The notes beneath the pieces are model-generated. The model was not told the DNA's origin and ran no database searches. It saw only the letters and a list, made by a program, of their open reading frames with translations. From assembly GCA_964452165.1 (NCBI GenBank), contig CAYVKP010000001.1, positions 204,110-268,109 on the forward strand: 64,000 nt of DNA. Direction: 5' to 3'. Shown piece after piece: positions 13,049-61,647 of the stretch (the first letter of the stretch is position 1; each line of letters begins with the position of its first letter). The translations under genes were made by a program, and so were the position numbers. The stretch is from an uncultured Gammaproteobacteria bacterium (GTDB lineage Bacteria > Patescibacteriota > Microgenomatia > Levybacterales > GWA1-39-11).

Positions 13049-13099
13049 ACGATTATAGCAAATAAATTAAAAAAAGATAGCACTTTTTGTACGATAAAT

Positions 13100-19383: not shown

Positions 19384-19912
19384 GCACCCCTTTGTAGAAA
19401 AATTAATCGCTCTTGGAATCCTACTTTTTCTACTAGGTACCATCACGCACCTGCAAATTTTCACAAACGCCCTGATTAGCCAAAGGGAACAGCCTAAAAA
19501 GGTTTACGTGGCACAGGATCCGTCATCTATTTCAATTCCGTCGGTAAGAATTAACGTGAAGGTTGATGAAGGGGGTATAGCTTCGGGTAATTGGATTCTA
19601 TCTTCCGATAAAGCTCTATACTTACCCACAAGTGGAAAAATTGGGGAAGGCTACAATACCATAATCTACGCACACGACACCAATAATCTTTTTGGGCCTC
19701 TTCTTTGGGTAAAAAAGGGCGATTTAATTCTTCTTACTGACAGAAAAGGAAAGGAATTTAAGTATAAAATTTTCTCAACAGAAGAGGTTGACCCCAAAGA
19801 TCTGAGCAAGCTATATTCCACAGAGAAAAACATAGTCACGCTATTTACATGCGACGGGTGGTTTGATGAGAAAAGACTATTAGTAAAAGCAAAGCTACTT
19901 CAGAAAAGCTAA
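19340..19912 (+). CDS. Sortase-family transpeptidase
   Basis: N-terminal TM, conserved His (IIYAHDTNNLFGPL), TLxTC active-site Cys (VTLFTCDGW) and Arg (KRLLVKAKL). Overlaps the 3' end of its putative substrate gene. Confidence 0.75.
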   Translation: MPKSKLKKRAKQANKHPFVEKLIALGILLFLLGTITHLQIFTNALISQREQPKKVYVAQDPSSISIPSVRINVKVDEGGIASGNWILSSDKALYLPTSGKIGEGYNTIIYAHDTNNLFGPLLWVKKGDLILLTDRKGKEFKYKIFSTEEVDPKDLSKLYSTEKNIVTLFTCDGWFDEKRLLVKAKLLQKS

Positions 19913-19985
19913 CCCACAAAGATTCACCTATAGTATTGACATTGGGCTTTCAAATTGCTATAATCCCTAATCTTATATTAATTAG

Positions 19986-21662: not shown

Positions 21663-21775
21663 AAGTTTAAAACTCTCTACCGCTGTGGTGTCATTTTATT
21701 TAAAAAATGACTGATTGTAATCACCCAGTTAAAGTGATATTATCCCCCTAAGTACTTAGGTACGAATTCATTATT

Positions 21776-24700: not shown

Positions 24701-26581
24701 ACGGATGAAAACAACAATCTTCTACCAAATTGGACAATACAACTTGCTTCGTGTCTTGCAGGATTTACAAATTGTGTCGATGTTCTAGGAGCGGCAATCC
24801 CAACCGACAACAACGGAGCATATTTGTTCAGCAATTTAGTTACAGGATTTTACCAGGTGTACGAAATTATGCAGGCGGGTTGGACAAACGTTACCGCTCT
24901 TTTTCACAATGTTGAAATTCAGCCGGGAACAGTAAGTTCAAACAATAACTTCCAGAATAAAGGAAATCTGAGAATTACGGCTTGTAAATACGAGGATGCT
25001 GATGCTAATAATCAGACAACAGAAGATAGAACGCCGGTCAATAATTGGAGTTTTACACTCAGCGGTGAGCAACTCGGAGAAAATGTTACTCAGTCAGCAG
25101 GAGAAGAAAGCAATTGTACAACCTTTACGGATCTTAAACCCGGAGCCTATCAGGTTGATGAAAAATTGGCCAGTCACACGGACTGGTCTGTAGTAGACAA
25201 GAATGGAGATGTTCAGGACGTCACCCTTACAAATGAATCCACAACGGTTAATTTCTACAACTACCGAAAAGCTCATATTATTGTCAAGAAAGACGTAGTG
25301 AATCCTGATGGGGGCGTAGTTACTGATACAAGTACAAATTTTGACTTCAGAATTCACCAAGGCGGAGACATAGTTGAATCTTTCTCTTTGGTTGATGGCG
25401 CAACGAGTTCTACTTACGATGTTAATCCAGGCACTTACGATGTTAACGAAGTTCTAAACCATAGTAATTACTCGTTTGGTTCCTGTACTGCGGTTTATGA
25501 CGGTGAATCAATCGGCCGTCCTGTTACAGAAGAAGACGAATCAGGTGAGCAGGTAAGTCTTGATTCAAATGACACAGTGACGGTTACATGTATTAACAAG
25601 CAGAAAACGGGCAGGGTCCATGGATACAAATGGAACGATGAAAACGGGGACGGAAAACTAACTTGTACTGAAGGTGGCGAATTCCCAACATGTGAATCAA
25701 AACTATCTGATTGGACCATCTTTGTTGATTCAAATAACAATAAAACCCTCGATGAAGGAGAGCAATCGACTACAACCGACTCAAGTGGGAATTACTCTTT
25801 TACCCTTAATCCTGGGACCTACAATATTTGCGAAGTAGTAAAAACAGGTTGGGAGCAAACTTATCCGGGCTCAGGGGAAACTGCCTGTCACACCGTTACG
25901 ATAAGTTCAAATCAAAACTCTGAGCAAAGTCTTAACTTCGGAAATAAAAATGTGATTCCGGCATTCACAATTGCTAAAACCAATGACACAGAAGGAGCGA
26001 GCAAAGCACCGGGAGACGTAGTTAACTACACCCTGACATTAACGCTCGACGATACAAAGGGTCCCGGAGACAACATAACTGTTACCGACCTTCTTCCAAA
26101 GGGCTTTGTTTACAATGGAGGCTCATACCAAGCATTTCTCAATGGGAACCCAATATCAGTTGAAGAACCAACCTACCATTCACCGGGAACATGGACTCTT
26201 CCAAGCGCACAGCCGGGTGATGTATTTACATTAAAATACAAAGCAACTGTTGATAGCGGACAGCAATCAGGTACATATTATGACAATGCATGGGGACAAG
26301 GTACGCCTGTAGGAGATCCTTCAAGTACGATTCTTGCGCTCGCGGGTACAGATGGAAATATTGGTGATCCAAATTTTGTAGGAACACAAGTAAGCGTTTC
26401 AAAAGAAGATTCCCAATCGCCGTCTATTGCTAAAACCCAGGGCCAAGTTTTAGGTGCATCAACCGAGGCTCTGCCTTCAACAGGTGCAAACACATTTCAA
26501 ACAGCTCTGGGAATCATCGTACTTATTATAGGATTGAACTTATTACTTGTAGGCTTTATAATTCGCAAACGCTATGTTTAA
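21776..26581 (+). CDS. Giant (1601 aa) cell-surface adhesin-like protein with DUF11/Cna-B/SdrD-B-type repeats and C-terminal sortase signal
   Basis: Signal peptide. Pro/Thr-rich linker. Tandem repeats around GTIELKKVWSGTGGQTTL. SdrD-B-like segment KWNDENGDGKL...SDWTIFVDSNNNKTLDEGE. DUF11-like GDVVNYTLTLTL..GTYYDNAWG. C-terminus QVLGASTEALPSTGANTF, then a TM, then RKRYV. Confidence 0.8.
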   Translation: MHKLRRAAQKFLVFIAFFAMLVQSLNPFLYVLPQVAYAQEATVTPTDTPSDTPTVTPDQNQTVTPTPTPADSVTPTDTPTPAETVTPTPVGGDTSTVTPDQTQPNNNSPPSGQSVSGQNSSNSSNSNSPTSSITPTITVAPTVTPAPDKGEGGKIGVAVLKDVSAPSIDLQATNTDSSATLTTDKSDYAPTDTALITGSNFSPNKTYSLTVSSNDAPATSTTANVTTNDSGSFVYAYQLDGKYRPNYKVEVKDASGTVVASTTFTDSASVTTTVSGVACVGDQPGQNGLVCTANDINLASVSPTVTINGHGCRFPGDTVNFTANYQIQSNANNRYNAGVWFATNGQASALHGTCSATSLPSTPNPPFFDGGTSCGGINKPDIGTITITQTAVCNPDSSGFLTIPYCTTWQQNSNNACTTPTDTVPGTGSKCNCPAGGIEIPITVPPAIEVIKSLSPSNDSGLFNLLVNAITKKTDATNGGTTGKVGVTTGQNTFGEANGTGTNLSNYASVASCVLRGTSTTVAITGTGPTWTITNVTNGQDIVCTITNTANNGTIELKKVWSGTGGQTTLTIGSAIGGNNVANTQTGAIGSAPLTTGPKTVNSGSYYLNETGGLTNYTPSALTCFNDANNDGTNNNGESSVSVGASNAVAVSANQHVICSFTNTRDQGTIELKKVWSGTGGQTTLNIGTSAGGTQTASVQTGASGAAPLTTGTQTVDTNTYYISENGGLTDYSSVLACTDNGSTVTPGANNSLNVAKNHAVICTFTNTRNTGTIKVIKDVVAPNGSPITDTSTNFAFSVDGGSTFDLTDGGNHSTTVITGANHTVVETPNANYDFAGCTSDSQTQGSAVANGIVVTVTTGTTSTVTCTNKQKHAKITVVKVVKDASGKVVSDSKTFTVQLNGASDDSTLSDTHDVVYNPNPGTYTVSEANDANYDNLGCKLNADLTATNFSLASNQSVTVTCTNKQKPGSILGVKTDENNNLLPNWTIQLASCLAGFTNCVDVLGAAIPTDNNGAYLFSNLVTGFYQVYEIMQAGWTNVTALFHNVEIQPGTVSSNNNFQNKGNLRITACKYEDADANNQTTEDRTPVNNWSFTLSGEQLGENVTQSAGEESNCTTFTDLKPGAYQVDEKLASHTDWSVVDKNGDVQDVTLTNESTTVNFYNYRKAHIIVKKDVVNPDGGVVTDTSTNFDFRIHQGGDIVESFSLVDGATSSTYDVNPGTYDVNEVLNHSNYSFGSCTAVYDGESIGRPVTEEDESGEQVSLDSNDTVTVTCINKQKTGRVHGYKWNDENGDGKLTCTEGGEFPTCESKLSDWTIFVDSNNNKTLDEGEQSTTTDSSGNYSFTLNPGTYNICEVVKTGWEQTYPGSGETACHTVTISSNQNSEQSLNFGNKNVIPAFTIAKTNDTEGASKAPGDVVNYTLTLTLDDTKGPGDNITVTDLLPKGFVYNGGSYQAFLNGNPISVEEPTYHSPGTWTLPSAQPGDVFTLKYKATVDSGQQSGTYYDNAWGQGTPVGDPSSTILALAGTDGNIGDPNFVGTQVSVSKEDSQSPSIAKTQGQVLGASTEALPSTGANTFQTALGIIVLIIGLNLLLVGFIIRKRYV
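23431..24120 (+). repeat. Intragenic tandem domain repeats (about 345-bp period) within the adhesin gene
   Basis: Near-identical DNA acaatcgagcttaaaaaagtatggtccggaacgggaggacaaacaaca at about 23440 and about 23785. A third, diverged unit lies near 24080. Confidence 0.5.
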
Positions 26582-27596
26582 GATATTATTTAGATCATTT
26601 ATAGGTTTTGCCGCCGTGCTTATCTTAGCAAGCCTTGTCTCGCCTTTGGCGGATCAGGTTTTTGCTAACTCAGCAGTATCAATAAGACTTGAGCAGCCAA
26701 AGACTCCCACCAACCAAAATTCCCTTAATATTACATTTGTAACACTCGATACACAGAGTGAGGCAATTACCGTCAAATGCTTCAAAAAAGGCCCAACTGA
26801 TGGCGCTTTTAGCCAGTTTGGGGCAGACATAAATCTTGCGGCGGGCGGAAATACCGGAACCTGCGATGCCAATTCGTCCGTAATAAACACTCCGGGTTCA
26901 TATCAATTTTATGCAACAGCAACGGCAGCCTCAGGCAATGGCACAAGTTCAACAGTAAATGTTGATTACAACAATTCCGGGCCAGGTACTCCCACAAATT
27001 TCAGCAAGGACAGAATTACCTCTTGCTCGTACAAAATTAAATTTAGAACGGCAGATGATAGCGGAAAAACAATCAAAGTAAGAATATACCGTGCCGACGC
27101 AACTGCTTCGGATCCATCTTCAACGTCTGAAGTAGGAGCTGTTAATATTGGCTCGAGTACCGATGGAGAATTCACAAATACGATTCCTGACTGTAGTAAA
27201 TCATACTACTATGCGGTAAGGGCTTTTGATTCTGCAGGAAATGCGTCGGGGGTCGTAGGAGATTCTATAAATATAGGAAGTACTACTACGACCACAACCA
27301 CAACAACGGGCACAACGGGTGCAAGCCCAACCGCAGGCACTGGTGCAATTCCAGTTGGTGCAGGACAGGGATCGGTTCCGGGCGAGCAAACAAATCAAAA
27401 TGAAAATGGTACAAAACAAGAAGTACTTGGTGCATCAACACCAAGTGGCAAGACAGGAGAAATGGAAAAGAAGAACAATGCAACTGTGGGTAGCGCCTTT
27501 TCCTCAAAAAAACTTTTTGCAGGAGCAATCGCCATAATAGTAGTGATCGCAGGAGTTGCCTATATCCTCTACAGAAGAGGCAAGAAAACCATATAA
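26574..27596 (+). CDS. FN3/Ig-like surface protein with Thr-rich stalk and C-terminal sorting signal (EVLGAST...KTG, TM, RRGKK)
   Basis: Signal peptide, beta-rich domains, a run of Thr, and C-terminus EVLGASTPSGKTGEME...AGAIAIIVVIAGVAYILYRRGKKTI. Overlaps the adhesin gene's end by 8 nt. Confidence 0.6.
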   Translation: MFKILFRSFIGFAAVLILASLVSPLADQVFANSAVSIRLEQPKTPTNQNSLNITFVTLDTQSEAITVKCFKKGPTDGAFSQFGADINLAAGGNTGTCDANSSVINTPGSYQFYATATAASGNGTSSTVNVDYNNSGPGTPTNFSKDRITSCSYKIKFRTADDSGKTIKVRIYRADATASDPSSTSEVGAVNIGSSTDGEFTNTIPDCSKSYYYAVRAFDSAGNASGVVGDSINIGSTTTTTTTTTGTTGASPTAGTGAIPVGAGQGSVPGEQTNQNENGTKQEVLGASTPSGKTGEMEKKNNATVGSAFSSKKLFAGAIAIIVVIAGVAYILYRRGKKTI

Positions 27597-28217
27597 TTGT
27601 CTTTAGTGAAAAGACTTTCTTCTCTTTTAATTTACGCAGGCGGCGCACTTGTAATTCTATCTCTTATATTTCTAATCGTAGTTTTTGCCCCAATTATAAA
27701 ACTTGAACTTTCGTATTTTTTCCAAGGTCCTGGAAAAGAAAAAGTTGTTTTAGAAAATAAAACAAGAGCAGAAAATGTGCTTGTTCCTGTTGATCCCGAA
27801 TTCGGAATCGTGATTCCCAAAATTCGAGCAAATGCAAAAATAATACCAAATGTAAATCCGTATTCTGAGCCGGAGTACCAGAGAGCTTTAGCACGCGGTG
27901 TCGCTCAGGCACGCGGTACCGGTGTGCCGGGAGAGGGTAAAAACATTTTCCTTTTTTCTCACTCATCTGTCGACTTTCTTGAAGCTTCACGTTACAACTC
28001 TATTTTTTATTTGCTCAATAAGATGGAAAAAGGAGATGAGATAGACCTTTTTTATAAGGGGCGCGAATATAAGTATAAAGTAACTGACAAAAAAATAGTT
28101 GATCCTAAAAATGTTGCATACTTAAGTCCAAACTCTAACCAGGAAAAATTGACCTTGATGACTTGCTGGCCTCCCGGCACAAATCTACAAAGACTCATTA
28201 TAACAGCCCGGCAATAA
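27597..28217 (+). CDS. Sortase-family transpeptidase
   Basis: TM anchor, His (IFLFSHSS), Cys (KLTLMTCWPPGT) and Arg (RLIITAR). Lies immediately after two putative substrates. Confidence 0.75.
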   Translation: MSLVKRLSSLLIYAGGALVILSLIFLIVVFAPIIKLELSYFFQGPGKEKVVLENKTRAENVLVPVDPEFGIVIPKIRANAKIIPNVNPYSEPEYQRALARGVAQARGTGVPGEGKNIFLFSHSSVDFLEASRYNSIFYLLNKMEKGDEIDLFYKGREYKYKVTDKKIVDPKNVAYLSPNSNQEKLTLMTCWPPGTNLQRLIITARQ

Positions 28218-28290
28218 GGCCTCTTTTGATACAGAAACGCCATATTTACAAGATACCTTTAAAGTGTTAAATTTTAATATCTTTAGGCAG

Positions 28291-29745
28291 ATGAAAACTT
28301 TAAAGCCCTTAATAGGCTTGTTATTATTCTTCTTTTTTTCATTTTTTCTCGTTGTTAATTTAGTTTTTGTTCCTGTTGCTTATGCTGCAAAAACTACTCC
28401 GACGTCAACAACTGTCACCTGGAAAGGAAACGGAACAACAGGTGGTTTTTGTTCTTCATTTGAAAATGACCCTGATTTAAATCCCGCGTCAGGAAAACAA
28501 GGCTGGTTGTTTATATTAACCTCACCTTATACGAGTGGTCCATATAATCTAACCTATTCTTTTAGTGATGGAACGAATAATATTAATACTCCTCCGGTTG
28601 TTCAAAAAATTGTAGGGTCGGTTCATATTATTGTTTACACAGCCATCGACGCGAAATTATTGAGTGCATCAGTTACAAACGGCACTTCAAACAGTATTCT
28701 GACTGTTTCTCATTGTGAAAAAGCGATTCGACCCCTGCAAGTTTCAAAAACAGCAAATACAACTTTCACCCGAACGTGGACATGGGGTATCGATAAGTCT
28801 GCAGATCAATCAGATCTTGGTGCATTGCAGCCAAACGATGTTAAAACCGTTAACTACATTGCTACGGTAAGCGCGGGTTCGCAAGATAGCGATTGGGTTG
28901 TAAACGGAACAATAACTGTAACAAACCCTGCGGGTAATCCAAACGCGACAATAGCAAGCGTAACAGACGTTCTGAGTAGTTTTGGTAGCGTGTCGGGTGT
29001 AAATTGCGGAGTAATCTTCCCGTATATTCTTAGCGCTGGGAGTGTTCTTAATTGTACTTACACTCAAGTACTAGGTGGGGCAGTGAATCAAACAAATACA
29101 GCAACGGTTGTGACGACCGGATTAGTGCCGGGAGGTTCGTCAAGTGCTGTGCCCGTAGCATTTGATAGCCCTACAACCGAAACCGACGAGTGCGTAACCG
29201 TAAACGATACAAATTCAAAGGGTCCTCAGGGAGTAGTAGTTTGTTCGGCGGATTCCCCTAAGACTTTTAACTACAGTACTACATTTAGCAAAGATGGTGC
29301 ATCAGACGTGAAACTTGTTTGTGGAAGCAATACTTACAACAACACTGCGTCTTTTGTAACAAATGACACTTCAACGGCTGGAAGTGACAGTTGGACGGTT
29401 ACTGCAAATGTACAATGCAATACTTTTTGGTGCTCGCCAGGATACTGGGGTAGCGCGGCCAAATTTGATATTTACAGCTACATAAATGCACACAAAGTTG
29501 TAACTCCTCCTGCGAGTATTGCCGGAGCGGATTTATACAGCTCTATTACCGGTATTGTTCCAGCAGCTCTGAAGGCCGGTAGTCCTTCGAATCCAAGCCT
29601 TGGGGATGTACTCGGGAGTCCTTCTACTTACGGTGGACCGGCGAATAACTCAATTTCTGATTACTTCGCTTACCTTCTCGGCTGGGGTGGAACCCAGGCA
29701 ACAGGTGATAACTGCCCAATAAACACATTCGGAAATCCCAACTAA
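28291..29745 (+). CDS. Secreted beta-rich protein, hypothetical (no sorting signal)
   Basis: Signal peptide MKTLKPLIGLLLFFFFSFFLVVNLVFVPVAYAA. Thr/Asn/Ser-rich beta domains and several Cys pairs. Confidence 0.45.
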   Translation: MKTLKPLIGLLLFFFFSFFLVVNLVFVPVAYAAKTTPTSTTVTWKGNGTTGGFCSSFENDPDLNPASGKQGWLFILTSPYTSGPYNLTYSFSDGTNNINTPPVVQKIVGSVHIIVYTAIDAKLLSASVTNGTSNSILTVSHCEKAIRPLQVSKTANTTFTRTWTWGIDKSADQSDLGALQPNDVKTVNYIATVSAGSQDSDWVVNGTITVTNPAGNPNATIASVTDVLSSFGSVSGVNCGVIFPYILSAGSVLNCTYTQVLGGAVNQTNTATVVTTGLVPGGSSSAVPVAFDSPTTETDECVTVNDTNSKGPQGVVVCSADSPKTFNYSTTFSKDGASDVKLVCGSNTYNNTASFVTNDTSTAGSDSWTVTANVQCNTFWCSPGYWGSAAKFDIYSYINAHKVVTPPASIAGADLYSSITGIVPAALKAGSPSNPSLGDVLGSPSTYGGPANNSISDYFAYLLGWGGTQATGDNCPINTFGNPN

Positions 29746-30961: not shown

Positions 30962-31168
30962 TTGTACTGGTAGAATTTTGCTTCATAACGAAAAAAAGCC
31001 CGAAAGAAATAGTTGTTGATGAATGCGTTATGAAAACGCGGAGAACAGCGCACGCTGCTCAAATTCACCAACCGTTCAATCAGTCGGGCTCTTTTTCTTG
31101 CCTTCACTTCGGGCGGCTACAACTTTTTAGGCTGCGCTTTGCTCGAAGTTATTCGATTGTTTGTGAGA

Positions 31169-31447
31169 TCAGTAGATGTTATCTCGACAGATCTCGTCTT
31201 TGCCGGCTAGGATTAGCGCGCCTACTTCCTCTTGGCGGTCTGATCCCTTGTGTTCAATCTCGGTCAACCTAACGTAGATGCTGGCCGAAGTCACTCGAGG
31301 GTCGTCTTCAATGACGGCTATTGCTAGTAGCGCGTTCTTGTCCATGCCGGTCGAAATGGTTACGATATCTCCTCGCCGGAGAATGTGGAGACAATCTCCA
31401 ACTCGTTCCAGTGAAGGAAAGGGTGCTGTCACCCAGGGAGATGCCAT
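31169..31447 (-). CDS. Island ORF 7 (92 aa), hypothetical
   Basis: Last ORF of the minus-strand series; GC-rich codon usage. Confidence 0.35.
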   Translation of the reverse strand: MASPWVTAPFPSLERVGDCLHILRRGDIVTISTGMDKNALLAIAVIEDDPRVTSASIYVRLTEIEHKGSDRQEEVGALILAGKDEICRDNIY

Positions 31448-31486
31448 AGCTTGCTCCTTCCGAAGCTTGTGGCGCGCTGGCCGTTA

Positions 31487-31831
31487 CTAGAGATACAGTT
31501 CAACCGCTCTCTGATGAGAGTGGTCGGGAACGAACGTACCTGCGACGCGGGGGGGTGCCGGCGCAAAATAGTCGATCTGGTACATGTTGGAACATGACAG
31601 GTAGGTGATGCCGCAAAGCACACCTGATTTGTCAGCTCTTCTAAGCCAGAGTGTTTGATCAGGCCAGACTTCGGCTGTGATGACGAAGTCAGCAAGTTCA
31701 CTACCACTATCAAGCATGGCACCATCGTTGGTGACAAAACCGAGGATCTCGTCTTCGGGGACCTGGAAGTGTTCACAGATCGCCTCAATGAGCTCAAGGG
31801 TCATGTCTACGTCGTTCGTTGTCCTGTACAT
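31487..31831 (-). CDS. Island ORF 6 (114 aa), hypothetical
   Basis: Consistent spacing within the operon; acidic protein. Confidence 0.35.
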   Translation of the reverse strand: MYRTTNDVDMTLELIEAICEHFQVPEDEILGFVTNDGAMLDSGSELADFVITAEVWPDQTLWLRRADKSGVLCGITYLSCSNMYQIDYFAPAPPRVAGTFVPDHSHQRAVELYL

Positions 31832-31958
31832 TGGCTTTCCTTCTCATGGGGATAATCATCCAGCTTAGCCACTGCTGAATGATGGCGGGGCTTGATTAGG
31901 CGACGGGGTACCCAATCAGGTCATTCGTAACTCCTTTCTGATGTTCGTCGTCACGAAC

Positions 31959-32156
31959 TTATCGGGAAACGTCCCAGTCTGGGTTGTTTCCACCAGCAAT
32001 ACGCCCATGTTTATGGGAAATCTTGCAGGCTGAGCAGAGCGTTATTGTCTCTCCGTAGATCTCTGAGCACTCCTTACACACGTTAGTTGTCTTGTTCCCG
32101 CAGAATGTGCAGAAGTACACACGCGGAATCAATCCGAAGAGTGGCATCAGGTTCAC
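31959..32156 (-). CDS. Island ORF 5, small zinc-ribbon protein (three CxxC pairs)
   Basis: CTFCGN..CKEC..CSAC. Confidence 0.4.
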   Translation of the reverse strand: MNLMPLFGLIPRVYFCTFCGNKTTNVCKECSEIYGETITLCSACKISHKHGRIAGGNNPDWDVSR

Positions 32157-32183
32157 TTCCTGTCTGGTGAAGGCGCGCCTTCG

Positions 32184-32729
32184 TTACTCAGTGGCTGTGT
32201 TGCCCTGGTAGACGTTGTAGTGCTCGGTGGCCTTGATAAACTTATCACCGGCAGACGGACCTTGCGGGCACCTGTGCACAATGATGAGCTGGCCGCTCTT
32301 GTGACAATCCCGTGCATCCCGGCGAGTCAAACTTGTACTCCAGGTGCAGTGGATTGCGTCACAGTCACACTCCTTCTCGACCTCCTGCGAGAGGAAATCG
32401 TTAATCAGCGCTGTGCTGATGAAGCCTCCACCGTCGTCCTCGATGAGTCGCCAGAATTCTCTGCAAGCATCATCGTGGTCGAAACAGTAACCGAAGTAGA
32501 AGAGTACTTCAACATTCGCGTCGGCTGGACTAGTTTCGTATTTGATTTCGGCCTCATCGAGCATTGCTCGAATTCCTTCAGCCGAAACTTGGTTCGCCGT
32601 AAGTCTGAGGCAGTTGTAAGTGCCCATGGGTATTTCCGAAGCATCGTGACAGAGGAAGCATTTCATTTCCCCGTCCCATATGTACTCCGGATACACCAGT
32701 AGTTCGCCCTCTGCGAATCTTCGTGCCAT
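32184..32729 (-). CDS. Island ORF 4, Cys/His-rich protein, hypothetical
   Basis: CFLCH, CFDHDDAC, ECDCDAIHC, DCH, HRC clusters suggest metal binding. Confidence 0.4.
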   Translation of the reverse strand: MARRFAEGELLVYPEYIWDGEMKCFLCHDASEIPMGTYNCLRLTANQVSAEGIRAMLDEAEIKYETSPADANVEVLFYFGYCFDHDDACREFWRLIEDDGGGFISTALINDFLSQEVEKECDCDAIHCTWSTSLTRRDARDCHKSGQLIIVHRCPQGPSAGDKFIKATEHYNVYQGNTATE

Positions 32730-32777
32730 CGTGGCTACTCCTCCCTATGAAGGCGCGCTGGCCCCCGTTACCTGCCG

Positions 32778-33320
32778 TTACTTGACGCTGAAGAACGCCC
32801 AGAGGATGTCTCCGAAGCGATGCGCGCATCTAACGTTAATGCACTCACCAGGTGACATCTTCGCGGCGATGTCTGCGTCCGTCGAGATCTGGTAGAAGAG
32901 CTTGTACTCGCCGGGTTTGACGGGTACCTTGAGTGGAATCGTAATGTTGCCCTTTCCACCTGGCTTAAGCGCCGGGACAGACACAGAGGCGTCCGAGATC
33001 TGCTTGAGATCTGGTTTACTTCCGTCAGTCGCGGCCGATTCGCCATAGACGCGGACGAGCTTGTAGTCGCCGGTCCAGGTTGTTGTGCCGCAATTGGTCA
33101 CTTCCCAGACTTTGTCTTGGGTTGATCCCGCTGCCAGCGTCTGCCACTTGTCGGGAGTGTCCTCGATGGTGACATCCCTGACGAACTTCATGCAGTCCTC
33201 GAGCTTGGCGGTCGCAGAGGATGTTGGTTTGTCTTTGGGACTGTACCATGCAGCCCACGCAACAACAACTCCCAAGATACATAGAAGCAGGAGAGTTACG
33301 ACAGTCTGCTGCCTGATCAT
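32778..33320 (-). CDS. Island ORF 3, membrane-anchored Ig/CARDB-like beta-sandwich protein
   Basis: N-terminal signal anchor VVTLLLLCILGVVVAWAAW. Segment VWEVTNCGTTTW...SVPALKPGGKGNITIPLKVPVKPGEYKLFYQI resembles CARDB/NBR1-like folds. Confidence 0.4.
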   Translation of the reverse strand: MIRQQTVVTLLLLCILGVVVAWAAWYSPKDKPTSSATAKLEDCMKFVRDVTIEDTPDKWQTLAAGSTQDKVWEVTNCGTTTWTGDYKLVRVYGESAATDGSKPDLKQISDASVSVPALKPGGKGNITIPLKVPVKPGEYKLFYQISTDADIAAKMSPGECINVRCAHRFGDILWAFFSVK

Positions 33321-33362
33321 CTTGTTGCTCCTTTCGAGCAGACTCGTGAGACCCGCGTCTCG

Positions 33363-33947
33363 TTACCCTCCGAATAGCACGGTGGCGGAGAAGAGGTCTC
33401 CACGCTGGAGAACTCTTCTGGATATTGCCTGTACATCTTCGCCGTTGAGGCGGCAGTTGCCCAGGCCGAACTCAAGTCCGAGTTCCTTAGTAAGATGCTT
33501 GACCAGTTCGTTGACGGTTTTGCCTGCGTAGGGCACCATCAAGGGGTCAAACGGTTGATCGCCGATGTCAAGTGTGACCACGATGTCGTTGGGGCCGGTA
33601 GACCGCAATATGGTCACTTCTTTTCTCAAATCGGCGACGGCTTGCTCGCGCTCTTCAGGCGAAAGGTTGTTCGCGGGTTTGCGCTCAACGCTCATATTGA
33701 AGTACGGCAGCACTTCACCGAGCTCCTCATTACCAGGGACGTCCTCGCCTCGCGAGGTGAAAGTCATGGTTCCAGCCAGACGCACAGAGTAGGCACCACC
33801 GCGGACAATCATGTCCTCGGTTACTTCTAGGGTGTCTCCGGCTTCTGGAATCTTGTCAACCCGCAGGACGGCGCTGTATATGTTGGCGCCTATTGCGATG
33901 TAGACAGGTTTCTTTTCAGGTTGATGACGTTTTCCGAACAGTTTCAC
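33363..33947 (-). CDS. Island ORF 2, protein with C-terminal ThiS/MoaD-like ubiquitin-fold domain ending in Gly-Gly (possible tandem beta-grasp)
   Basis: C-terminus ...CRLNGEDVQAISRRVLQRGDLFSATVLFGG followed directly by a stop. The pattern N-x-E-x-V...L..GD.....GG matches ThiS/MoaD. An N-terminal segment also ends ...GDTLEV..MIVRGG. Confidence 0.45.
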   Translation of the reverse strand: MKLFGKRHQPEKKPVYIAIGANIYSAVLRVDKIPEAGDTLEVTEDMIVRGGAYSVRLAGTMTFTSRGEDVPGNEELGEVLPYFNMSVERKPANNLSPEEREQAVADLRKEVTILRSTGPNDIVVTLDIGDQPFDPLMVPYAGKTVNELVKHLTKELGLEFGLGNCRLNGEDVQAISRRVLQRGDLFSATVLFGG

Positions 33948-33959
33948 TTCCGACCTCCG

Positions 33960-34289
33960 TTACTTGTTGAGAGTTGCGACCCACTTGATAGTGACGCCGC
34001 GGTTGGTGTCGGGGAATACGGTTACCCGGTTTTCCTCGATAAGAATTCGCCAACCGAATTTGTACTGCCATGCGCCGGCCAAGTCGTGGACCGTGAATGC
34101 AGTATTGTCCTTGCCTCCCATCACAACGTATGGGGGAAAGAGTCGTCTGTGTTCATCGCGAAGATTGCTCACGTCGTCGTGGAACGACTCAAACGTGAAC
34201 TCTCCAAGCCCGAACACTTGTTGGAAGCGGTTAGCATACCTCGGAGCGTTCTCCGGGGTGAGAACTATACCTTGTGCTTGGGTTGTCAT
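33960..34289 (-). CDS. Island ORF 1 (109 aa), hypothetical
   Basis: First gene of the operon, preceded by a strong SD. No recognisable motif. Confidence 0.35.
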   Translation of the reverse strand: MTTQAQGIVLTPENAPRYANRFQQVFGLGEFTFESFHDDVSNLRDEHRRLFPPYVVMGGKDNTAFTVHDLAGAWQYKFGWRILIEENRVTVFPDTNRGVTIKWVATLNK

Positions 34290-34339
34290 GTCTCCTCCTC
34301 CATCTTTCTTTCCAGCTTATGCTGATGAATTTAGTTTCG

Positions 34340-34440
34340 TATCACATAAGTGACACACCGGATACAACAATTGACAGTTAACAATTAACAAAATTGACAA
34401 CAGACAAAAATTATATGCAGAGCGTCACCTACGTGACAAA
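34340..34440 (-). promoter_or_regulatory. Candidate island promoter (TTGTCA-18-TATAAT on minus strand) with two GTCAC-N4-GTGAC-type palindromes
   Basis: Minus strand reads cTTTGTCAcgtaggtgacgctctgcaTATAAT. The perfect palindrome GTCACGTAGGTGAC sits in the spacer. A second near-palindrome GTGTCACTTATGTGATAC lies downstream. Confidence 0.3.
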
Positions 34441-39040: not shown

Positions 39041-41431
39041 ATGAAACAATCAAAAAAAGAAATTCAGGTTAACGGATCAACCATTGAGCTCTCAACGGGG
39101 CTTCTTGCAGGACAAGCAACTTCTGCCGTGGTAGCACGTGTAGGTGACACAATGATCATTGCAACCGTTGTTATGGGGCGAAACGATACTACTCTTGGCT
39201 ATTTCCCACTGTCGGTTGAATATGTAGAAAGACTTTACGCGGGCGGAAAAATAAAGGGAAGCCGTTGGGTGAAACGCGAGGGCAGGCCCTCTGATGACGC
39301 AATCCTTACAGCTCGTATGATAGACCGCTCCATAAGACCTCTTTTTCCAAAAGAGCTTAAAAAAGATATTCAGGTTGTTGTCACCGTTTTGTCTGTAGAC
39401 TTAGAGCATAAGCCTGATATTCTCGCCGCCGTAGCTGTCTCGGCAGCATTATCTATCTCAAAAATTCCATGGAATGGACCTATTGGAACTACTCGTGTAG
39501 GTTTGATGAAAAAAGAAGAAGAGGAAGAACTTGTTATAAATCCTTCAGCAACAGAAGAAGCCTTTATGGATCTTGATTTAGTTGTTTCAAGTAGACAAGG
39601 CCGTTCGGTCATGATTGAAGCAGGAGCAAAGCAAGTACCGGAGAAAAAAGTAGACGCTGGAATAAAACTTGCAAAAGAGGCAAATGCAAAAATTGAGACA
39701 GCAATAAACGAGTGGGTAAAAGAAATTGGAGAAAAGAAGATAGCGCTCGCAAAAGATGAGAAAAAAGAAGAAGTAATCATGCTTGTCGAGAAATCGTATA
39801 AAGATAAGATGGTTGAATTAATTGAAAAGGGAGTTGATAGGGAAGTTGGGGCAGAATTACAAGCAATAATTGATGCAATTTATGAACTTGAGAAGGAGAA
39901 TATTGACGACAAGGGCAAAATTGCCGGTGCAGTTGATTACGTTTTCAAGAAAACGGTTCGTGAGCAAATAATGACTCAGAAGAAAAGACCCGACGGTAGA
40001 GCGATTGATGAAATTCGCCCAATCTCGGCCCAAGTTGGTTTCTTACCCAGAACTCATGGCTCGGCCATATTTACAAGAGGAGAGACTCAAGGACTGTCGG
40101 TTGCGACGCTTGGTCCGTCCTCCATGGAGCAGATTATAGAGGGCCCTGAGGGTGAGGAAAAGAAAAGATACATGCATCATTATTCTTTCCCACCTTATTC
40201 TGTTGGTGAAACGGGTAGGATGATGTCTCCAAATAGGCGTGAGGTAGGACACGGCGCCTTAGCCGAAAAAGCACTAGAACCGGTGATTCCCGATATTTCG
40301 GTTTTCCCATATGCAATTCGCGTTGTTTCTGAAATTATGTCTTCAAATGGTTCTACGTCTCAAGCAGCTGTTTGTGGTTCAACCTTAGCTTTGCTTGATG
40401 CGGGAGTTCCGCTTACCGCACATGTTGCGGGAATTGCAATAGGACTTATGACTCAAGGTGATAAATTCATAACCCTCACCGACATAATCGGACTCGAAGA
40501 TTTCTCCGGAGACATGGACTTTAAGGTTGCCGGAACAAAAGATGGAATTACTGCAATTCAGTTGGACGTGAAGATAGATGGGTTAACCAATGAGATTGAG
40601 ACAGAGACACTTGAAAAAGCTAGAGTAGCAAGGTTGGCGGTTCTTGAAAAGATGGTGGAAGTTATTCCGGCAGCACGTACCGACGTTTCAAAATATGCAC
40701 CGAAAATTAAGACTGTCAAAATTGATCCTGAGAAAATTGGGGAAGTTATTGGATCGGGAGGAAAGACAATCCGCAACATTTCCGCAACAACAGGTGCAAC
40801 CGTTGATGTTGCTGAAGATGGAACAGTTTCAATCTCGGCAGTTGATGAGGCAGCTGTTGAAAAAGCAGCTGAATGGGTCGATCTTATAACCCGAGAACTT
40901 CAAAAGGGTGAAGTTTTTGAGGGAACAGTCAAGAGAATTGTCAATTTTGGAGCATTTGTTGAGATAGTTCCCGGTAAAGAAGGGCTAGTCCACGTCTCTG
41001 AAATGTCCACAGAGTACGTTAAGGATCCGGCAGACGTTGTTGAGATAGGACAGAAAGTGAAAGTTAACGTACGTGAGGTTGACGAACACGGAAGAATTAA
41101 TCTTTCAATGATTTTTGGTGAAAGACCTGAACGACCGGGAGGATCTGAAGGTGGAGATCGCGGTGACCGCGGACCCACTCGAGGCTCAGGGCAGGGACGA
41201 GAGGATCGTCCACGTGGAGGCCGAGATTTTGGTCCAAGACGTGAGGGAGGATCACGAGGTCCAAGGTCCTTCGGTGGCGCCCAAGGAGGCCGAGATTTTG
41301 GTCCAAGGAGTGAAGGGCAAGATAGGGGTCCGAGAAGAAGTTTTGGTGGACCAAGACGTGGTGGACCAAGAAGCAGACCGGCTCCATTTGACTCAATGCG
41401 CCCAGGTGGCGATGACCGCAACAGAAGATAG
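39041..41431 (+). CDS. pnp: Polynucleotide phosphorylase with C-terminal Arg/Gly-rich (RGG-like) tail
   Basis: Two RNase PH domains, KH and S1 domains, then about 110 aa of GDRGDRGP/RGGRDFGPR repeats. Confidence 0.95.
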   Translation: MKQSKKEIQVNGSTIELSTGLLAGQATSAVVARVGDTMIIATVVMGRNDTTLGYFPLSVEYVERLYAGGKIKGSRWVKREGRPSDDAILTARMIDRSIRPLFPKELKKDIQVVVTVLSVDLEHKPDILAAVAVSAALSISKIPWNGPIGTTRVGLMKKEEEEELVINPSATEEAFMDLDLVVSSRQGRSVMIEAGAKQVPEKKVDAGIKLAKEANAKIETAINEWVKEIGEKKIALAKDEKKEEVIMLVEKSYKDKMVELIEKGVDREVGAELQAIIDAIYELEKENIDDKGKIAGAVDYVFKKTVREQIMTQKKRPDGRAIDEIRPISAQVGFLPRTHGSAIFTRGETQGLSVATLGPSSMEQIIEGPEGEEKKRYMHHYSFPPYSVGETGRMMSPNRREVGHGALAEKALEPVIPDISVFPYAIRVVSEIMSSNGSTSQAAVCGSTLALLDAGVPLTAHVAGIAIGLMTQGDKFITLTDIIGLEDFSGDMDFKVAGTKDGITAIQLDVKIDGLTNEIETETLEKARVARLAVLEKMVEVIPAARTDVSKYAPKIKTVKIDPEKIGEVIGSGGKTIRNISATTGATVDVAEDGTVSISAVDEAAVEKAAEWVDLITRELQKGEVFEGTVKRIVNFGAFVEIVPGKEGLVHVSEMSTEYVKDPADVVEIGQKVKVNVREVDEHGRINLSMIFGERPERPGGSEGGDRGDRGPTRGSGQGREDRPRGGRDFGPRREGGSRGPRSFGGAQGGRDFGPRSEGQDRGPRRSFGGPRRGGPRSRPAPFDSMRPGGDDRNRR

Positions 41432-42668: not shown

Positions 42669-44324
42669 ATGGATACAGTTTCATATATTTCACTTGGCGG
42701 AGTTGGAGGCGTTACAAAAAACATGCATATGTATGTCTTTGGACGCGAGATTCTTCTGGTGGATTGCGGCATAGGTTTTGTAGATGACTCAATGCCGGGA
42801 GTTGATCTTTCTATTCCCAACATTTCATATCTAAAACAACAAATTGCAGCGGGAAAAAGAATTGTTGGAATGATGCTCTCACACGGTCACGAAGATCATA
42901 TTGGAGCGCTGCCCTTTATATTGCCTCAGTTACCACAATTTCCGGTTTACGGAACCACCTTAACCGCAGCTTTAGCAAATGAAAAACTTGCAGAATTCGG
43001 TGGTAAAACTCGTGTTCAGACAATTAGATTTAACGATATGCTTCGTCTTGGTGCGTTTAATGTATCGGTTGCCAGAATGACGCATTCAATAATGGATACT
43101 TCAAATATTTTCATTAAGACTCCAATAGGTAATTTTTATCATGGTAGCGATTTTAAGTTTGATTTCACACCGGTGGATGGGAAACCATCAGAAATTAGGA
43201 AAATAGCAAAATGGGGAGAAGAAGGAATCTTGTGTACGATGTCAGATTGTCTTGGCGCAGAACGCACGGGACATTCAAAGTCAGAATTGAATATTACAGA
43301 AAGTTTTGATGATGAATTCAGGCGTTCTCGTGGGAAAATTTTTGTTACCACTTATTCTTCAAATCTTTCGCGTATGAATCAGGCAATTGAGGTAGCAAAA
43401 AAATACAACAGACGCGTTTGTTTTATCGGTAGATCATTTCTTAAGGTTCGTGATGTTGGAAGAAAGCTTAAATATATGGATTTGCCTCCAAAAATGGAGA
43501 TCAAGCCGCAGGAGGTAAGAAGAATGAATCCGGCAAACGTTTTAATACTTCTTGCGGGTAGTCAGGGTCAGGAAGAATCGGGCTTATCAAGGATTGCACA
43601 AGACCAAGATCGTGACATCAGGATTGCGCGTGGAGATACGGTCATATTCTCAGCAGATCCAATTCCCGGAAACGAGATCAATATCACTTCTCTAATCGAT
43701 ACAATTTCAAAAAAAGATGTCAGAGTTGTTTATTCGCAGCTAACCGACGAATTTCATGTTTCAGGACACGGTTCTCAAAACGACCTAAAGCTTCTGATTT
43801 CTTTAACCAACCCCAGATTCTTGTTGCCGATTGGTGGTAATTACAAACACATGGTGGCTTACGAGAAGATGGCGGCTGAGATGGGTTACACAAATGACAA
43901 GGTAATTTTTGCAGATGAGGCAAGGGAGATAATTTTTTCCCAAAGTGGATTCCGAGTGGGTAAATCTCTTTCACCCTCAAATGTATATGTGGACCAAGTA
44001 TCAAAGGGACAAATTGACAGTTATATAATTATGGATCGTAAGAAAATAGCCGAGGAGGGAGTGATTATAATAATTTCTGAAATAAATTCTGCGACTGGGC
44101 AGATAACAGCGCCAGTAGATGTCATTGCGCATGGCGTAAATTTTGATAACAAAGATGAATTTGTTCGTAACATGGGAATTGAGCTGGATAAGGTTTTTTC
44201 GCGAAGAAAAGAAAAAGTAACTAATTGGGGATTTTACAGAAAGACCATTCAACAAAGAGCCGAACAAATGCTGTATGACGAGGGTAGAGAGCCGCTTATA
44301 GTACCCGTAGTGTTGGAAGTTTAA
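42669..44324 (+). CDS. rnj: Ribonuclease J (metallo-beta-lactamase/beta-CASP)
   Basis: MLSHGHEDHIGALP motif, beta-CASP and C-terminal domain. Confidence 0.9.
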   Translation: MDTVSYISLGGVGGVTKNMHMYVFGREILLVDCGIGFVDDSMPGVDLSIPNISYLKQQIAAGKRIVGMMLSHGHEDHIGALPFILPQLPQFPVYGTTLTAALANEKLAEFGGKTRVQTIRFNDMLRLGAFNVSVARMTHSIMDTSNIFIKTPIGNFYHGSDFKFDFTPVDGKPSEIRKIAKWGEEGILCTMSDCLGAERTGHSKSELNITESFDDEFRRSRGKIFVTTYSSNLSRMNQAIEVAKKYNRRVCFIGRSFLKVRDVGRKLKYMDLPPKMEIKPQEVRRMNPANVLILLAGSQGQEESGLSRIAQDQDRDIRIARGDTVIFSADPIPGNEINITSLIDTISKKDVRVVYSQLTDEFHVSGHGSQNDLKLLISLTNPRFLLPIGGNYKHMVAYEKMAAEMGYTNDKVIFADEAREIIFSQSGFRVGKSLSPSNVYVDQVSKGQIDSYIIMDRKKIAEEGVIIIISEINSATGQITAPVDVIAHGVNFDNKDEFVRNMGIELDKVFSRRKEKVTNWGFYRKTIQQRAEQMLYDEGREPLIVPVVLEV

Positions 44325-44412
44325 TTCCGCCACCGCTGTCTTCGGACTTCGTCCTCGCAGCCGGTCTCCCTTCGCTTCGCGATCGGTCCGACCCCGTAGT
44401 GTTGGAAGTTTA
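44324..44412. repeat. GC-rich repeat element copy B (about 69 nt) flanked by a 20-bp direct duplication (cccgtagtgttggaagttta at 44304-44323 and 44393-44412)
   Basis: Boxes CCACCGCTGTCTTC / CGCAGCCGGTCTCCCT / GGTCCGACC are shared with 13113-13183. Hairpins GGAC-TTC-GTCC and TCGC-TTC-GCGA. The duplication supplies stop codons for both convergent genes. Confidence 0.55.
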
Positions 44413-45201
44413 GCTGCTTCTGTCTTTCTTCAGCTTGTTTACCCAAGTTTTATAGCTTGCTTCAATTTTTCTTACTACAGTTTTTGGCTCTTGTTTAATC
44501 AGCTCACTTACTTCAAGTGGAGGAGCAAATGTGACCTTAATAGGAGTTAATAACTTAGCCGCATGAGGAATAAAGCGAAGATAGTCGAAATTTGACGTAC
44601 CTTCAATATATGCTCTTACAACATAAACTTTCTTTTTAGTTTTTATGCCATGGAGTAAATATCCAACACCCGAATACCATTTTTTGTTTTCATCTTTGCT
44701 AGGATTTGGAAAAATAACGACAGATCCTCCTTCGGACACTTTTCTGGCTGCATTATTTATACTTTCGATATTCTTTTTATGCTCTTGCGCCGGACTATAC
44801 GTTGGGACCGGGTGAAATTTTTTAAGAAACTTTTCTCTCAGTTTTTCACCCTTTTGAATATCTACGTGGTGCTCGACATAAACGGGAATCAGATATTTAT
44901 CCGCATTTGGAGCCAAATTCATAAATCTTGAACTAATAATGAGAGATGAGCTTTCCCTTGGGGGGAGAGCCGCAAAAAGCGCGATTATATCTACCTCGTG
45001 AGGGTGATTTGCAACAACTACCACAGACTCATCCTTTAATACATGATTAACTTTGTCAGTCCTTCCTTTGACAATAAGTTTGCTTTTGGAGCGGGTAACC
45101 GTATTCATCATGGCCTGTTGTAGACCGAATTTTTTGACGTCACGGTTAATGGTGCGCACAAAAGGCTTGATAACGGGGAATCTTGTAATTTGCGACTGCA
45201 T
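44410..45201 (-). CDS. Lysophospholipid (1-acylglycerol-3-phosphate) acyltransferase family protein (PlsC-like)
   Basis: HX4D motif VVVANHPHEVD; motif-III-like VIFPNPSKDE. Confidence 0.5.
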   Translation of the reverse strand: MQSQITRFPVIKPFVRTINRDVKKFGLQQAMMNTVTRSKSKLIVKGRTDKVNHVLKDESVVVVANHPHEVDIIALFAALPPRESSSLIISSRFMNLAPNADKYLIPVYVEHHVDIQKGEKLREKFLKKFHPVPTYSPAQEHKKNIESINNAARKVSEGGSVVIFPNPSKDENKKWYSGVGYLLHGIKTKKKVYVVRAYIEGTSNFDYLRFIPHAAKLLTPIKVTFAPPLEVSELIKQEPKTVVRKIEASYKTWVNKLKKDRSS

Positions 45202-60924: not shown

Positions 60925-61647
60925 ATGAAATATTACGTGAAAACCAACGGCCCAAGGAGAAAGAGGAACCCAAAAAAAACCTTCGGATTATTGTTTATCC
61001 TGGCCGGCATTGGTATATTTCTATATTTTTTCTTTCCCGTTCTTTCTTACCAAATATTTTTAGCCAACGCCTATGAAGGTGCGGGTATTGAAGTTCCGAT
61101 ACCAAAATATCTCGTTGTAAGTAAAACCGCAGACATTGGAAGTTTGGTTTCAGCGGGCTTTGCATCCCTCACTACCAATTTTAACGATGCAAGAAATTGG
61201 TATCCGGGTATGTCTAATACCGCTCAAAAAAGTAGCATTGATTCCTATACCTTGTCGATTCCCAAACTGAAAATAGAAAGCGCTGAAGTATCAACCAAGG
61301 ATTACAATTTAGACCGTCATCTCGTCCAATATTTTGGTACAGCAATTCCGGGACAAAAAGGGACGGCAGTAATTTTTGGTCATTCAACGATTCCGGCCTG
61401 GTTTGACCCAAAAAATTACAAAGCGATTTTTGCAACCTTGCATACAATAAAAGTGGGCGACGAATTTTCAGCAACCGTTGCAGGGATAACTTATAAGTAC
61501 AAGATATTTTCAATAATTATCACAAATCCTGCTGATACTAATATTTTGAGTCAAAGTTATGACAATTCTTATATTACAATTGTTACATGTACTCCTCCCG
61601 GAACTATTTGGAAAAGACTTATTGTCCGTGCCGCTCTTGAGTCATAA
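60925..61647 (+). CDS. Sortase-family transpeptidase
   Basis: TM anchor, His (AVIFGHSTIP), Cys (ITIVTCTPPGT) and Arg (KRLIVRAAL). Confidence 0.7.
   Translation: MKYYVKTNGPRRKRNPKKTFGLLFILAGIGIFLYFFFPVLSYQIFLANAYEGAGIEVPIPKYLVVSKTADIGSLVSAGFASLTTNFNDARNWYPGMSNTAQKSSIDSYTLSIPKLKIESAEVSTKDYNLDRHLVQYFGTAIPGQKGTAVIFGHSTIPAWFDPKNYKAIFATLHTIKVGDEFSATVAGITYKYKIFSIIITNPADTNILSQSYDNSYITIVTCTPPGTIWKRLIVRAALES

Follow-up and report, generated by a model that had tools for sequence, protein, structure and literature searches.

A small structured element inserted with a 20-bp target-site duplication at a convergent gene junction in Patescibacteria

The 64-kb stretch of Patescibacteria DNA analyzed here (hereafter the window; approximately 40% GC overall) contains, at the junction between rnj, which encodes RNase J, and a convergent acyltransferase gene, a short GC-rich sequence bracketed by two copies of the same 20 bp. 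We found that this sequence, designated copy B, is an insertion with a target-site duplication and is a member of a structured family. We consider it probable that copy B is a recent insertion from an undescribed family of non-coding elements of approximately 60 to 70 nt, found in Patescibacteria-like genomes, and that it was mobilized in trans and copied via a single-stranded intermediate; the enzymology of this movement we infer. A preliminary description of the window, made from its letters only, had reported the duplication. That the family is structured and strand specific, has a nearly invariant core, and has a sharp 5' boundary after a native GG is new. The minus strand of the window is referred to below as R.

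Copy B interrupts the junction of rnj and a convergent acyltransferase gene

The sequence CCCGTAGTGTTGGAAGTTTA occurs exactly at positions 44304-44323 and 44393-44412 and has no further match in the window, even when 3 mismatches are allowed. Two matches of this type were present in 0 of 100 dinucleotide shuffles, and a flank-shuffling test also gave 0 of 100. The 69 bases separating the two copies (44324-44392) are 65% GC, versus approximately 40% in the window, so that the arrangement in the preliminary description, two exact 20-mers bracketing a 69-nt GC-rich stretch, stands as given. The features of the junction are as follows.

42669 to 44324, plus strand: rnj (RNase J), open reading frame (ORF) with Pfam RNase_J_b_CASP and RNase_J_C matching to residue 551, the last residue
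44304 to 44323, plus strand: left copy of the 20-bp target-site duplication, CCCGTAGTGTTGGAAGTTTA, exact match
44324 to 44329, minus strand: 6-nt filler, ATTCCG on the plus strand and CGGAAT on the minus strand, from the 7-copy alignment
44330 to 44392, minus strand: conserved 63-nt element, copy B, from covariance model R1 (82.1 bits, E 1e-13), fold, and covariation
44393 to 44412, plus strand: right copy of the 20-bp duplication, exact match, with the empty site in relative L003
44410 to 45201, minus strand: convergent acyltransferase gene, ORF with a weak Pfam PF01553 match (23.8 bits, cutoff 23)

The RNase J homologues, from Levybacteria and Patescibacteria, are the same length (548 to 554 amino acids [aa]). 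They assign the window to "Candidatus Levybacteria" (Patescibacteria), and a protein identical to the window RNase J is encoded on an NCBI contig of 650 kb. The left duplication copy consists of the last six rnj codons and the TA of the stop, and the final A, at 44324, comes from the insert; the preliminary description was correct in placing the end of rnj within this copy, but not in placing the entire TAA there. Similarly, the insert does measure 69 nt, but only 63 nt (44330-44392) are conserved, since the ATTCCG at its edge is not shared. This filler sits between the conserved element and the duplication and is absent from the other copies, with conservation ending at …CAGCGGTGG. On the minus strand, copy B reads 5'-GTCGGAC CGA (hairpin 2) AGGGAGACCGGCTGCGA (hairpin 1) GAAGACAGCGGTGG-3', in which hairpin 2 is UCGC-GAA-GCGA (44372-44382) and hairpin 1 is GGAC-GAA-GUCC (44344-44354).

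The right duplication copy contains the stop of the acyltransferase gene (the complement of 44410-44412), as had been noted before, and copy B lies 17 nt 3' of that stop, in sense with the acyltransferase gene. The duplicated 20 bp end in GGG on the minus strand. Because 20 bp of the target is now present on both sides, rnj still has its final six codons followed by a stop, and the acyltransferase gene has not lost its own stop. The base after the right copy is G44413, and the stop of an uninterrupted rnj would therefore be TAG, overlapping the acyltransferase stop by 2 nt.

The insertion site is empty in relatives

The rnj junction was compared with those of relatives, as the preliminary description had proposed. 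In L003, whose RNase J and orthologous acyltransferase are 86% and 67% identical to the window proteins, the two stops abut (…GAAGTTTAA/CTA…, with the slash at the boundary), there is a single copy of the target, and there is no insert. L018, whose RNase J is 82% identical, has no insert either; there, the stop of rnj and a different convergent gene overlap (TTAA). Since the genes of L003 abut without insert or duplication, the event that produced copy B was an insertion with target-site duplication, which was how the duplication had originally been interpreted, and these results demonstrate that rnj and the acyltransferase gene were ancestrally placed stop to stop with no spacer. The empty junctions also show that the duplication goes with the insert instead of being a signal conserved at this junction; neither the 20-bp duplication without an insert nor a conserved overlap signal, the two findings that were to speak against an insertion, was seen in the relatives compared.

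The interval between rnj and ftsK differs among close relatives: the window and L003 have the acyltransferase gene there, L018 has a 66-aa ORF, and L001/L019 and L004 lack any gene at this place. From these gene orders, the interval appears to be a hot spot of gene gain and loss. No copy of the element was present in the syntenic 18 kb of L019, a close relative. For the window's second element copy, copy A, the orthologous site is empty in L014/L015, and the 20-kb Zn-ribbon regions of L014 and L015 contain no element copy.

Copies of the element occur in unrelated contexts

Copies were found by exact-pattern scans of public genomes and metagenomes and with covariance model R1; the family can be written as the pattern GTCGGA-N(8-45)-GAGACCGGCTGCGA-N(5-30)-CAGCGGTGG. 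Seven copies were obtained: A and B in the window, and L005, L007, L009, L010, and L011 in other Patescibacteria-like contigs. L005, L007, L009, and L010 came from the exact-pattern scans, and the more divergent L011 was met during the search for the empty site of copy A. Model R1 scored the seven copies at 52 to 82 bits, versus <10 bits elsewhere in the approximately 200 kb searched. Four other candidates (L006, L008, L016, and L017) were rejected as chance pattern matches in GC-rich coding DNA, and BLAST searches of phage and plasmid collections, together with three IMG/VR pattern scans, gave chance matches only and no copies. Copy density is low, at 2 per 64 kb in the window.

The copies are 63 to 70 nt long and share the R-strand consensus 5'-GTCGGAC(T)GAG-(hairpin 2)-(C)GA(G/A)GGAGACCGGCTGCGA-(hairpin 1)-GAAGACAGCGGTGG-3'. 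Three blocks are almost invariant and together form a conserved, non-palindromic core of approximately 40 nt, and the hairpins, which are set in by 10 to 11 nt at the R-strand 5' end and by 14 nt at the 3' end, vary in sequence and length yet stay paired. Hairpin 1 occurs as GGAC/GUCC, UCCCGC/GCGGGA, GGGC/GCCC, and CGAAC/GUUCG, and hairpin 2 as UCGC/GCGA, GUCC/GGAC, and GGUCGC/GCGACC. The loops are mostly GAA, and L005 and L007 have two-pair stubs only. Copies A and B, from the same genome, have wholly different hairpin sequences. The features at copy A are as follows.

13113 to 13180, minus strand: copy A, 68 nt, covariance model 72.1 bits
13100 to 13432, minus strand: Zn_ribbon_2 gene, Pfam domain ending at W84

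Copy A directly follows a conserved Trp codon (TGG, the complement of 13181-13183) at the 3' end of the Zn_ribbon_2 gene, where it takes the place of the native gene end. The ORF reads through it and gains 26 residues (VGLSPKDEGDRLRSRKAGEDSGGSIL), giving a 110-aa product that is matched by an identical protein in a Logan assembly (P0121); homologues are 85 to 92 aa long and end in …RW plus 2 to 7 aa. The divergent copy L011 is located at the same TGG in a gene whose protein is 71% identical, which may reflect either a preference for this site or an old insertion that has since been lost. Overall, the hosts are the Zn-ribbon gene (A and L011), rplO (L009), a small membrane protein gene (L010), the rnj/acyltransferase junction (B), and tRNA clusters (L005 and L007), and four copies (A, L009, L010, and L011) are entered by the reading frame of their host gene.

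The preliminary description had held that the element lacks coding capacity, and this agrees with the alignment, in which no ORF is common to the copies and the differing hairpin lengths shift the frame. A protein- or peptide-coding repeat was accordingly rejected, since the reading frame is not conserved across copies, and translated peptides derived from the element had no match at E values up to 10 in a set of 5.8 billion proteins. Among the 55 window ORFs, Pfam searches found no transposase, Y1/HUH, reverse transcriptase, integrase, or Cas domain, which is consistent with mobilization in trans.

Two further observations were made on these contigs. In L009, ribosomal protein L15 (1023-1514, minus strand) reads into the element. 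The codons for GGRIE, the final residues that appear to be native, are GGGGTCGGATTGAG, a sequence that agrees with the first 13 bases of the element at 12 of 13 positions, by chance or as extended junction homology. The contigs of L005 and L007 are binned as uncultured Gammaproteobacteria; they are 37 to 43% GC and resemble the other element-bearing contigs in gene content, and this bin assignment may be wrong.

One boundary is sharp and the other is variable

A GG precedes the element in all seven copies (TGG in five and GGG in two; KGG). Wherever its origin could be checked, this GG is native: it belongs to the Trp codon of the Zn-ribbon gene, which is conserved in all of the homologues, to the GG of the tRNA D-loop, or to the downstream duplication copies of B, L005, and L007. 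A native GG before every copy makes the R-strand 5' boundary sharp. The start of the element is identical (GTCGGA) in 7 of 7 copies, whereas its 3' side is variable and is followed by unrelated filler. In every informative case, the gene immediately upstream has R as its sense strand, and the copies are placed just after a gene, within its last codons, or in tRNA clusters.

The 45 nt upstream of each copy was then scanned against the 130 nt downstream for flanking duplications, with the following results.

Copy B: 20 of 20 matching, filler of 6 nt, scripted score reached in 0 of 100 shuffles
L005: 13 of 14 scripted and 17 of 21 when extended by eye, filler of approximately 60 nt, scripted score reached in 0 of 100 shuffles
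L007: 9 of 9 scripted, including the tRNA leader ATTTT, and 18 of 23 by eye, filler of 22 nt, scripted score reached in 1 of 100 shuffles

The same scan gave no flanking duplication above chance for A, L009, L010, and L011. The preliminary description had called for a search for further copies with flanking duplications; copies in unrelated contexts do exist and two of them have duplications of approximately 20 nt, but four have none. In L005 and L007, the upstream duplication copy consists of 18 nt from the 5' part of a tRNA, and the downstream one leads into an intact tRNA (Cys and Met, respectively). These two duplications probably rebuilt the interrupted tRNA gene, as the duplication at rnj did for its target.

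The L005 region has two additional peculiarities. At 1660-1800, tRNA-Cys is followed about 35 nt on by a second tRNA 3' part (CTATGCACGGGTTCGATTCCC…) with a different acceptor strand, near the element and the tRNA 5' fragment, and this part looks like an att-type scar of an integrative element. The filler of approximately 60 nt (1600-1659) is GC rich, can form hairpins (CGGGA…UCCCG and CCCGAU…AUCGGG), and contains the GATCGCGAAG of copy B hairpin 2; it may be a second small element.

The layout of copy B bears on an alternative already raised in the preliminary description, in which template switching during replication or repair produced the insertion and no dedicated enzyme took part. The nascent strand, with GGG at its end, would leave the junction, anneal by microhomology to CCC at the edge of another copy, copy the element and 6 nt of its flank, and return 20 nt upstream, producing the duplication; the hairpins perhaps stall polymerases. 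Such an event would be expected to leave the observed order of 20 nt, element, 6 nt of unrelated filler, and 20 nt, with 3 to 4 nt of junction microhomology (GGG is followed by GT in the element versus TA in the target). The variable filler and duplication lengths in L005 and L007, the four copies with no duplication, and the window's lack of a transposase or reverse transcriptase also favor it. However, microhomology alone does not explain why the element begins with the same base (GTCGGA) in 7 of 7 copies in rplO, tRNA, and Zn-ribbon hosts, and both the spread to new genomes and the combination of an invariant core with decaying flanks are left unexplained. Pure template switching thus fits the layout of copy B but not the invariant boundary, and we regard it as unlikely.

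The fold is specific to one strand

The same two-domain fold was predicted for the R strand of 6 of the 7 copies, with L011 folding differently from the other six. The R strand was more stable than its complement in all seven copies, by 2.8 to 7.7 kcal/mol in six and by 1.5 kcal/mol in L011. All four pairs of the domain I inner helix covary, including one copy in which both basal pairs are flipped; the two outer helices never vary and are thus uninformative for covariation. The inner helix also has seven G·U cells on the R strand, which would be A·C mismatches on the opposite strand. Paired cells amounted to 98.9%, compared to 30 to 68% when partners were slid. The covariation score, pairing percentage, and number of double changes were as high in 0 of 500 shuffles and the pair types in 1 of 500, with the caveat that the alignment was fitted to the structure tested. 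Taken together, these models demonstrate that the predicted fold is specific to the R strand.

Hairpins, folding of one strand, a short constant target, and a lack of inverted termini are hallmarks of the IS200/IS605 and IS91 groups. They raise the possibility of single-stranded DNA transposition by an HUH-type enzyme encoded elsewhere (IS200/IS605 TnpA, RAYT-like, or IS91/Helitron-like rolling circle). The element would then be a minimal left-end plus right-end derivative, similar to palindrome-associated transposable elements (PATEs) or repetitive extragenic palindromes (REPs), inserted 3' of KGG in one orientation, and read-through would carry donor flank with it. The absence of terminal inverted repeats, the two subterminal hairpins, the strand-specific folding with G·T-compatible pairs, the constant KGG abutting one end, the uniform orientation relative to genes, and the absence of a duplication in 4 of 7 copies are all as such a process would predict. 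Yet these mechanisms make no target duplication, while copy B has a perfect one of 20 bp and L005 and L007 have ones of approximately 21 to 23 nt. In addition, none of the 55 window ORFs has a Pfam match to a Y1/HUH transposase, the completely different hairpins of A and B within one genome would be odd for a single hairpin-reading enzyme, and inspection found no IS608-type complementarity between a guide and the cleavage site. Finally, the window GC skew is positive on the plus strand, making the folding strand the leading-strand template. The strand preference of IS608 and ISDra2 is opposite to this placement. An HUH or rolling-circle route accounts for the hairpins, target rule, and orientation but does not fit the duplications, and we judge it to be distinctly improbable.

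The fold also bears on the proposal that the element is an RNA module useful to the host, such as a stabilizer of 3' ends, a signal for processing, or a platform for protein binding that has tandem G·A internal loops, and is kept at gene ends by selection, with the copy B duplication an incidental by-product of its acquisition. Its sense orientation after genes, the R-strand-specific fold with covariation, and a core that is 100% conserved both next to duplications that have decayed by approximately 20% and across distant hosts would suit such a role. Against it, close relatives lack the element at both window sites, host ORFs are disrupted or extended (the Zn-ribbon gene by 26 aa, rplO, and the small membrane protein gene), and the element lacks a U-tract and is no intrinsic terminator. 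Moreover, this proposal concerns function, and a mechanism of movement would still be required. We consider it very unlikely as the explanation of copy B.

The element does not match known structured RNAs or mobile repeats

No terminal inverted repeat of at least 8 nt (6-nt seed) was found in 44296-44420 or 13095-13200, around copies B and A, in line with the preliminary description, and the element ends, GTCGGAC… and …CAGCGGTGG, are not complementary. Rfam 15 had no match in the whole window at gathering thresholds and none around copy B at E values up to 10; around A and L010 it gave only chance-level matches (10 to 17 bits, versus cutoffs of 39 to 80). The Rfam families to which the element thus gave no match include hammerhead, hepatitis delta virus (HDV)-like, twister, pistol, and hatchet ribozymes, group II intron domains, and tRNA. 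The window contains no tRNA or tmRNA.

Several specific candidates were also rejected. No GC-rich hairpin followed by a T-run, as in an intrinsic terminator, occurs on either strand around B or A. Manual threading onto HDV-like, hammerhead, and hairpin ribozymes gave a P1-like GUCGG/CCGGC but no P2 partner or conserved L3, and a CUGAUGA/GAAA core is absent. The variable and template repeats of a diversity-generating retroelement do not apply, since the differences between A and B are not adenine specific and the host genes are housekeeping genes. A guide-RNA reading of the 20-mer (TnpB or bridge-RNA-like) is not supported, given its absence from the other copies and the size of the element, which is far below that of known scaffolds. 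An integrase att-core insertion does not fit either, because the 20-mer is host rnj coding sequence, is single copy in relatives, and is not carried by the other copies.

We then compared the element with the defined classes of small repeats. [quoted passage not shown] Like them, the element is small (63 to 70 nt), non-coding, and present in several copies (seven) with no transposase of its own in the window, and MITEs are also mobilized in trans, are often found at gene 3' ends, are sometimes fused in frame, and are flanked by direct repeats of the target. However, the defining features of MITEs are terminal inverted repeats and a short duplication of fixed length, and the element has neither: its duplications are 20 nt (B), approximately 21 nt (L005), approximately 23 nt (L007), or absent (A, L009, L010, and L011).

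REP/REPIN sequences (RAYT) and the IS200/IS605-derived PATEs share with the element GC-rich hairpins at gene ends, a lack of inverted termini, strand-specific structure, orientation bias, and insertion beside a short constant sequence. REPs, though, are single imperfect palindromes of 20 to 40 nt with a conserved 5' tetranucleotide, are extragenic, occur in hundreds of copies, and make no duplication, whereas the element is a low-copy, two-hairpin unit of 63 to 70 nt with a conserved unpaired core, hairpin sequences that are not conserved, and a 20-bp duplication, and four of its copies overlap ORF 3' ends. The subterminal hairpins on one strand without inverted termini are as in PATEs. PATEs insert 3' of a fixed tetra- or pentanucleotide without duplication; the KGG agrees with the first half of this rule and the duplications contradict the second.

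Rickettsia palindromic elements are short structured repeats that are tolerated in frame in protein-coding and RNA genes (PMC10969869), and the element too is a short structured insert in genes that is tolerated as an addition. They differ from it in being approximately 100 to 150 bp long, in encoding a conserved peptide, and in being restricted to Rickettsia, and long duplications are not reported for them; the element has no conserved frame. The GC clusters of yeast mitochondria are mobile inserts that are short and GC rich, form hairpins, have short flanking repeats, and lie in a genome richer in AT. These are palindromic and target AT-rich spacers, unlike the element, which has a non-palindromic core, is found after …GG at gene ends, and is unrelated in host and sequence.

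Eukaryotic non-autonomous retroelements that bear ribozymes have been described (PMC5680766, PMC3185411). Short interspersed nuclear element (SINE)-like retroposons, retrozymes, and R2 and L1Tc 5' ribozymes resemble the element in having variable duplications of up to approximately 20 bp, one precise and one variable end, and a conserved core with variable stems, and a dependence on cotranscription with a host gene would fit the sense orientation. The element likewise has duplications of 0, 20, approximately 21, and approximately 23 nt, fillers of 6, 22, and approximately 60 nt, and a single defined end, as is typical of target-primed retroposons. It differs in having no A-rich or other recognizable 3' tail, no match to a known ribozyme, and no reverse transcriptase in the window. 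To our knowledge, no SINE- or retrozyme-like element has been reported in bacteria.

A proposed copy-and-paste route via a single strand

The sharp GG end, the ragged end with carried-over flank, the duplications of 0 to approximately 23 nt, the lack of inverted termini, and the strand-specific structure together point to copy-and-paste movement via a single strand. In the route that we favor, the element would be copied rather than excised and would be mobilized in trans via a single-stranded intermediate with one defined end. This end would be joined to a nicked target strand that terminates in …GG-3', or the strand would prime synthesis on it, so that the R strand starts at GTCGGA. Copying would run past the far end into a few to tens of bases of donor flank, which would become the filler; the CGGAAT of copy B would thus have been carried over from the flank of its donor copy. 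The second target strand would be broken at a variable offset of 0 to approximately 23 nt, and repair would yield a duplication of that length. Only insertions that left host genes working would persist, and such survivorship would place copies at the very ends of genes and long duplications in essential targets, namely, the rnj tail and tRNA genes.

The template could be RNA, as in SINE-like target-primed reverse transcription, or DNA, as in HUH/rolling-circle transposition. We weakly prefer target-primed copying, since target-primed reverse transcription fits both the asymmetry of the ends and the variable duplications. A more specific version is a bacterial retroposon of the SINE/retrozyme type, in which a tiny structured RNA would be cotranscribed with the upstream gene, its 5' end would be released at GG/GUCGGA, possibly by a new small self-cleaving ribozyme consisting of the conserved core and two variable stems, and a reverse transcriptase encoded elsewhere in the genomes of the candidate phyla radiation (CPR) would generate duplications of up to approximately 23 bp. 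This version seems to us a long shot. Whatever the template, the invariance of the core beside duplications that have decayed by approximately 20% suggests that the core is under selection, and it could serve as a recognition site for the mobilizing enzyme or as a 3'-end structure in the upstream mRNA.

Several points weigh against this route. A mobilizing enzyme was not found among the window ORFs. The family numbers only seven copies, and A and L011 share a site and possibly represent one event. The absence of a duplication in 4 of 7 copies excludes a fixed staggered cut and makes the variable offset an assumption. The tRNA-side duplications are 78 to 81% identical and could partly reflect general similarity of tRNA 5' ends. 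A target-primed mechanism would not predict that all 5 informative cases (4, should A and L011 stem from a single event) have the sense orientation, for which selection or a replication-strand bias has to be invoked. The folding strand, R, is opposite to the RNA strand ending in …CCA-3' that would be primed by …TGG-3', so that an RNA template requires the further assumption that the fold matters in the cDNA or in the mRNA. Finally, the invariance of the core across distant hosts could be that of a host-beneficial RNA spreading by other routes.

Other features of the window

The PNPase gene (39041-41431, plus strand) contains a 32-nt direct repeat at 41216-41316 with a 69-nt period (GGAGGCCGAGATTTTGGTCCAAG…) and 91% identity. 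It falls within a GC-rich stretch (41124-41294, approximately 65% GC) that lies beyond residue 690 of 796, where the final Pfam domain of PNPase stops, and the repeat suggests a repeated C-terminal tail. The region 31000-34400 is 48 to 54% GC, versus approximately 40% elsewhere, and has only short minus-strand ORFs, whose sole Pfam match is an N_BRCA1_IG Ig-like domain (32778-33320); it has no Rfam match and so is not rRNA; its origin may be foreign, or it may encode a group of small secreted proteins. Sortase genes are present at 19340-19912 and 27597-28217, in a cluster spanning 18514-29745, with another at 60925-61647. The cluster surrounds a surface protein of 1,601 aa (21776-26581) that is rich in repeats and has tandem repeats rich in Thr and Pro at 21890-22072.

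Significance for CPR genomes

Small non-autonomous repeats are common in bacteria, and the element fits none of their defined classes. The genomes of the CPR are very small and dense, and neighboring genes in them abut or overlap. The entry of the element into a junction of zero length without harm to either gene bears on how such packed genomes tolerate mobile DNA. If movement proceeds through an RNA intermediate, the element would be the first SINE-like retroposon in bacteria, and if its core is catalytic, it would represent a new ribozyme class. Covariance model R1 provides a handle for a census of the family in Patescibacteria and for a search for the enzyme by co-occurrence, and the element itself is a probe for a mobilization system in CPR bacteria.

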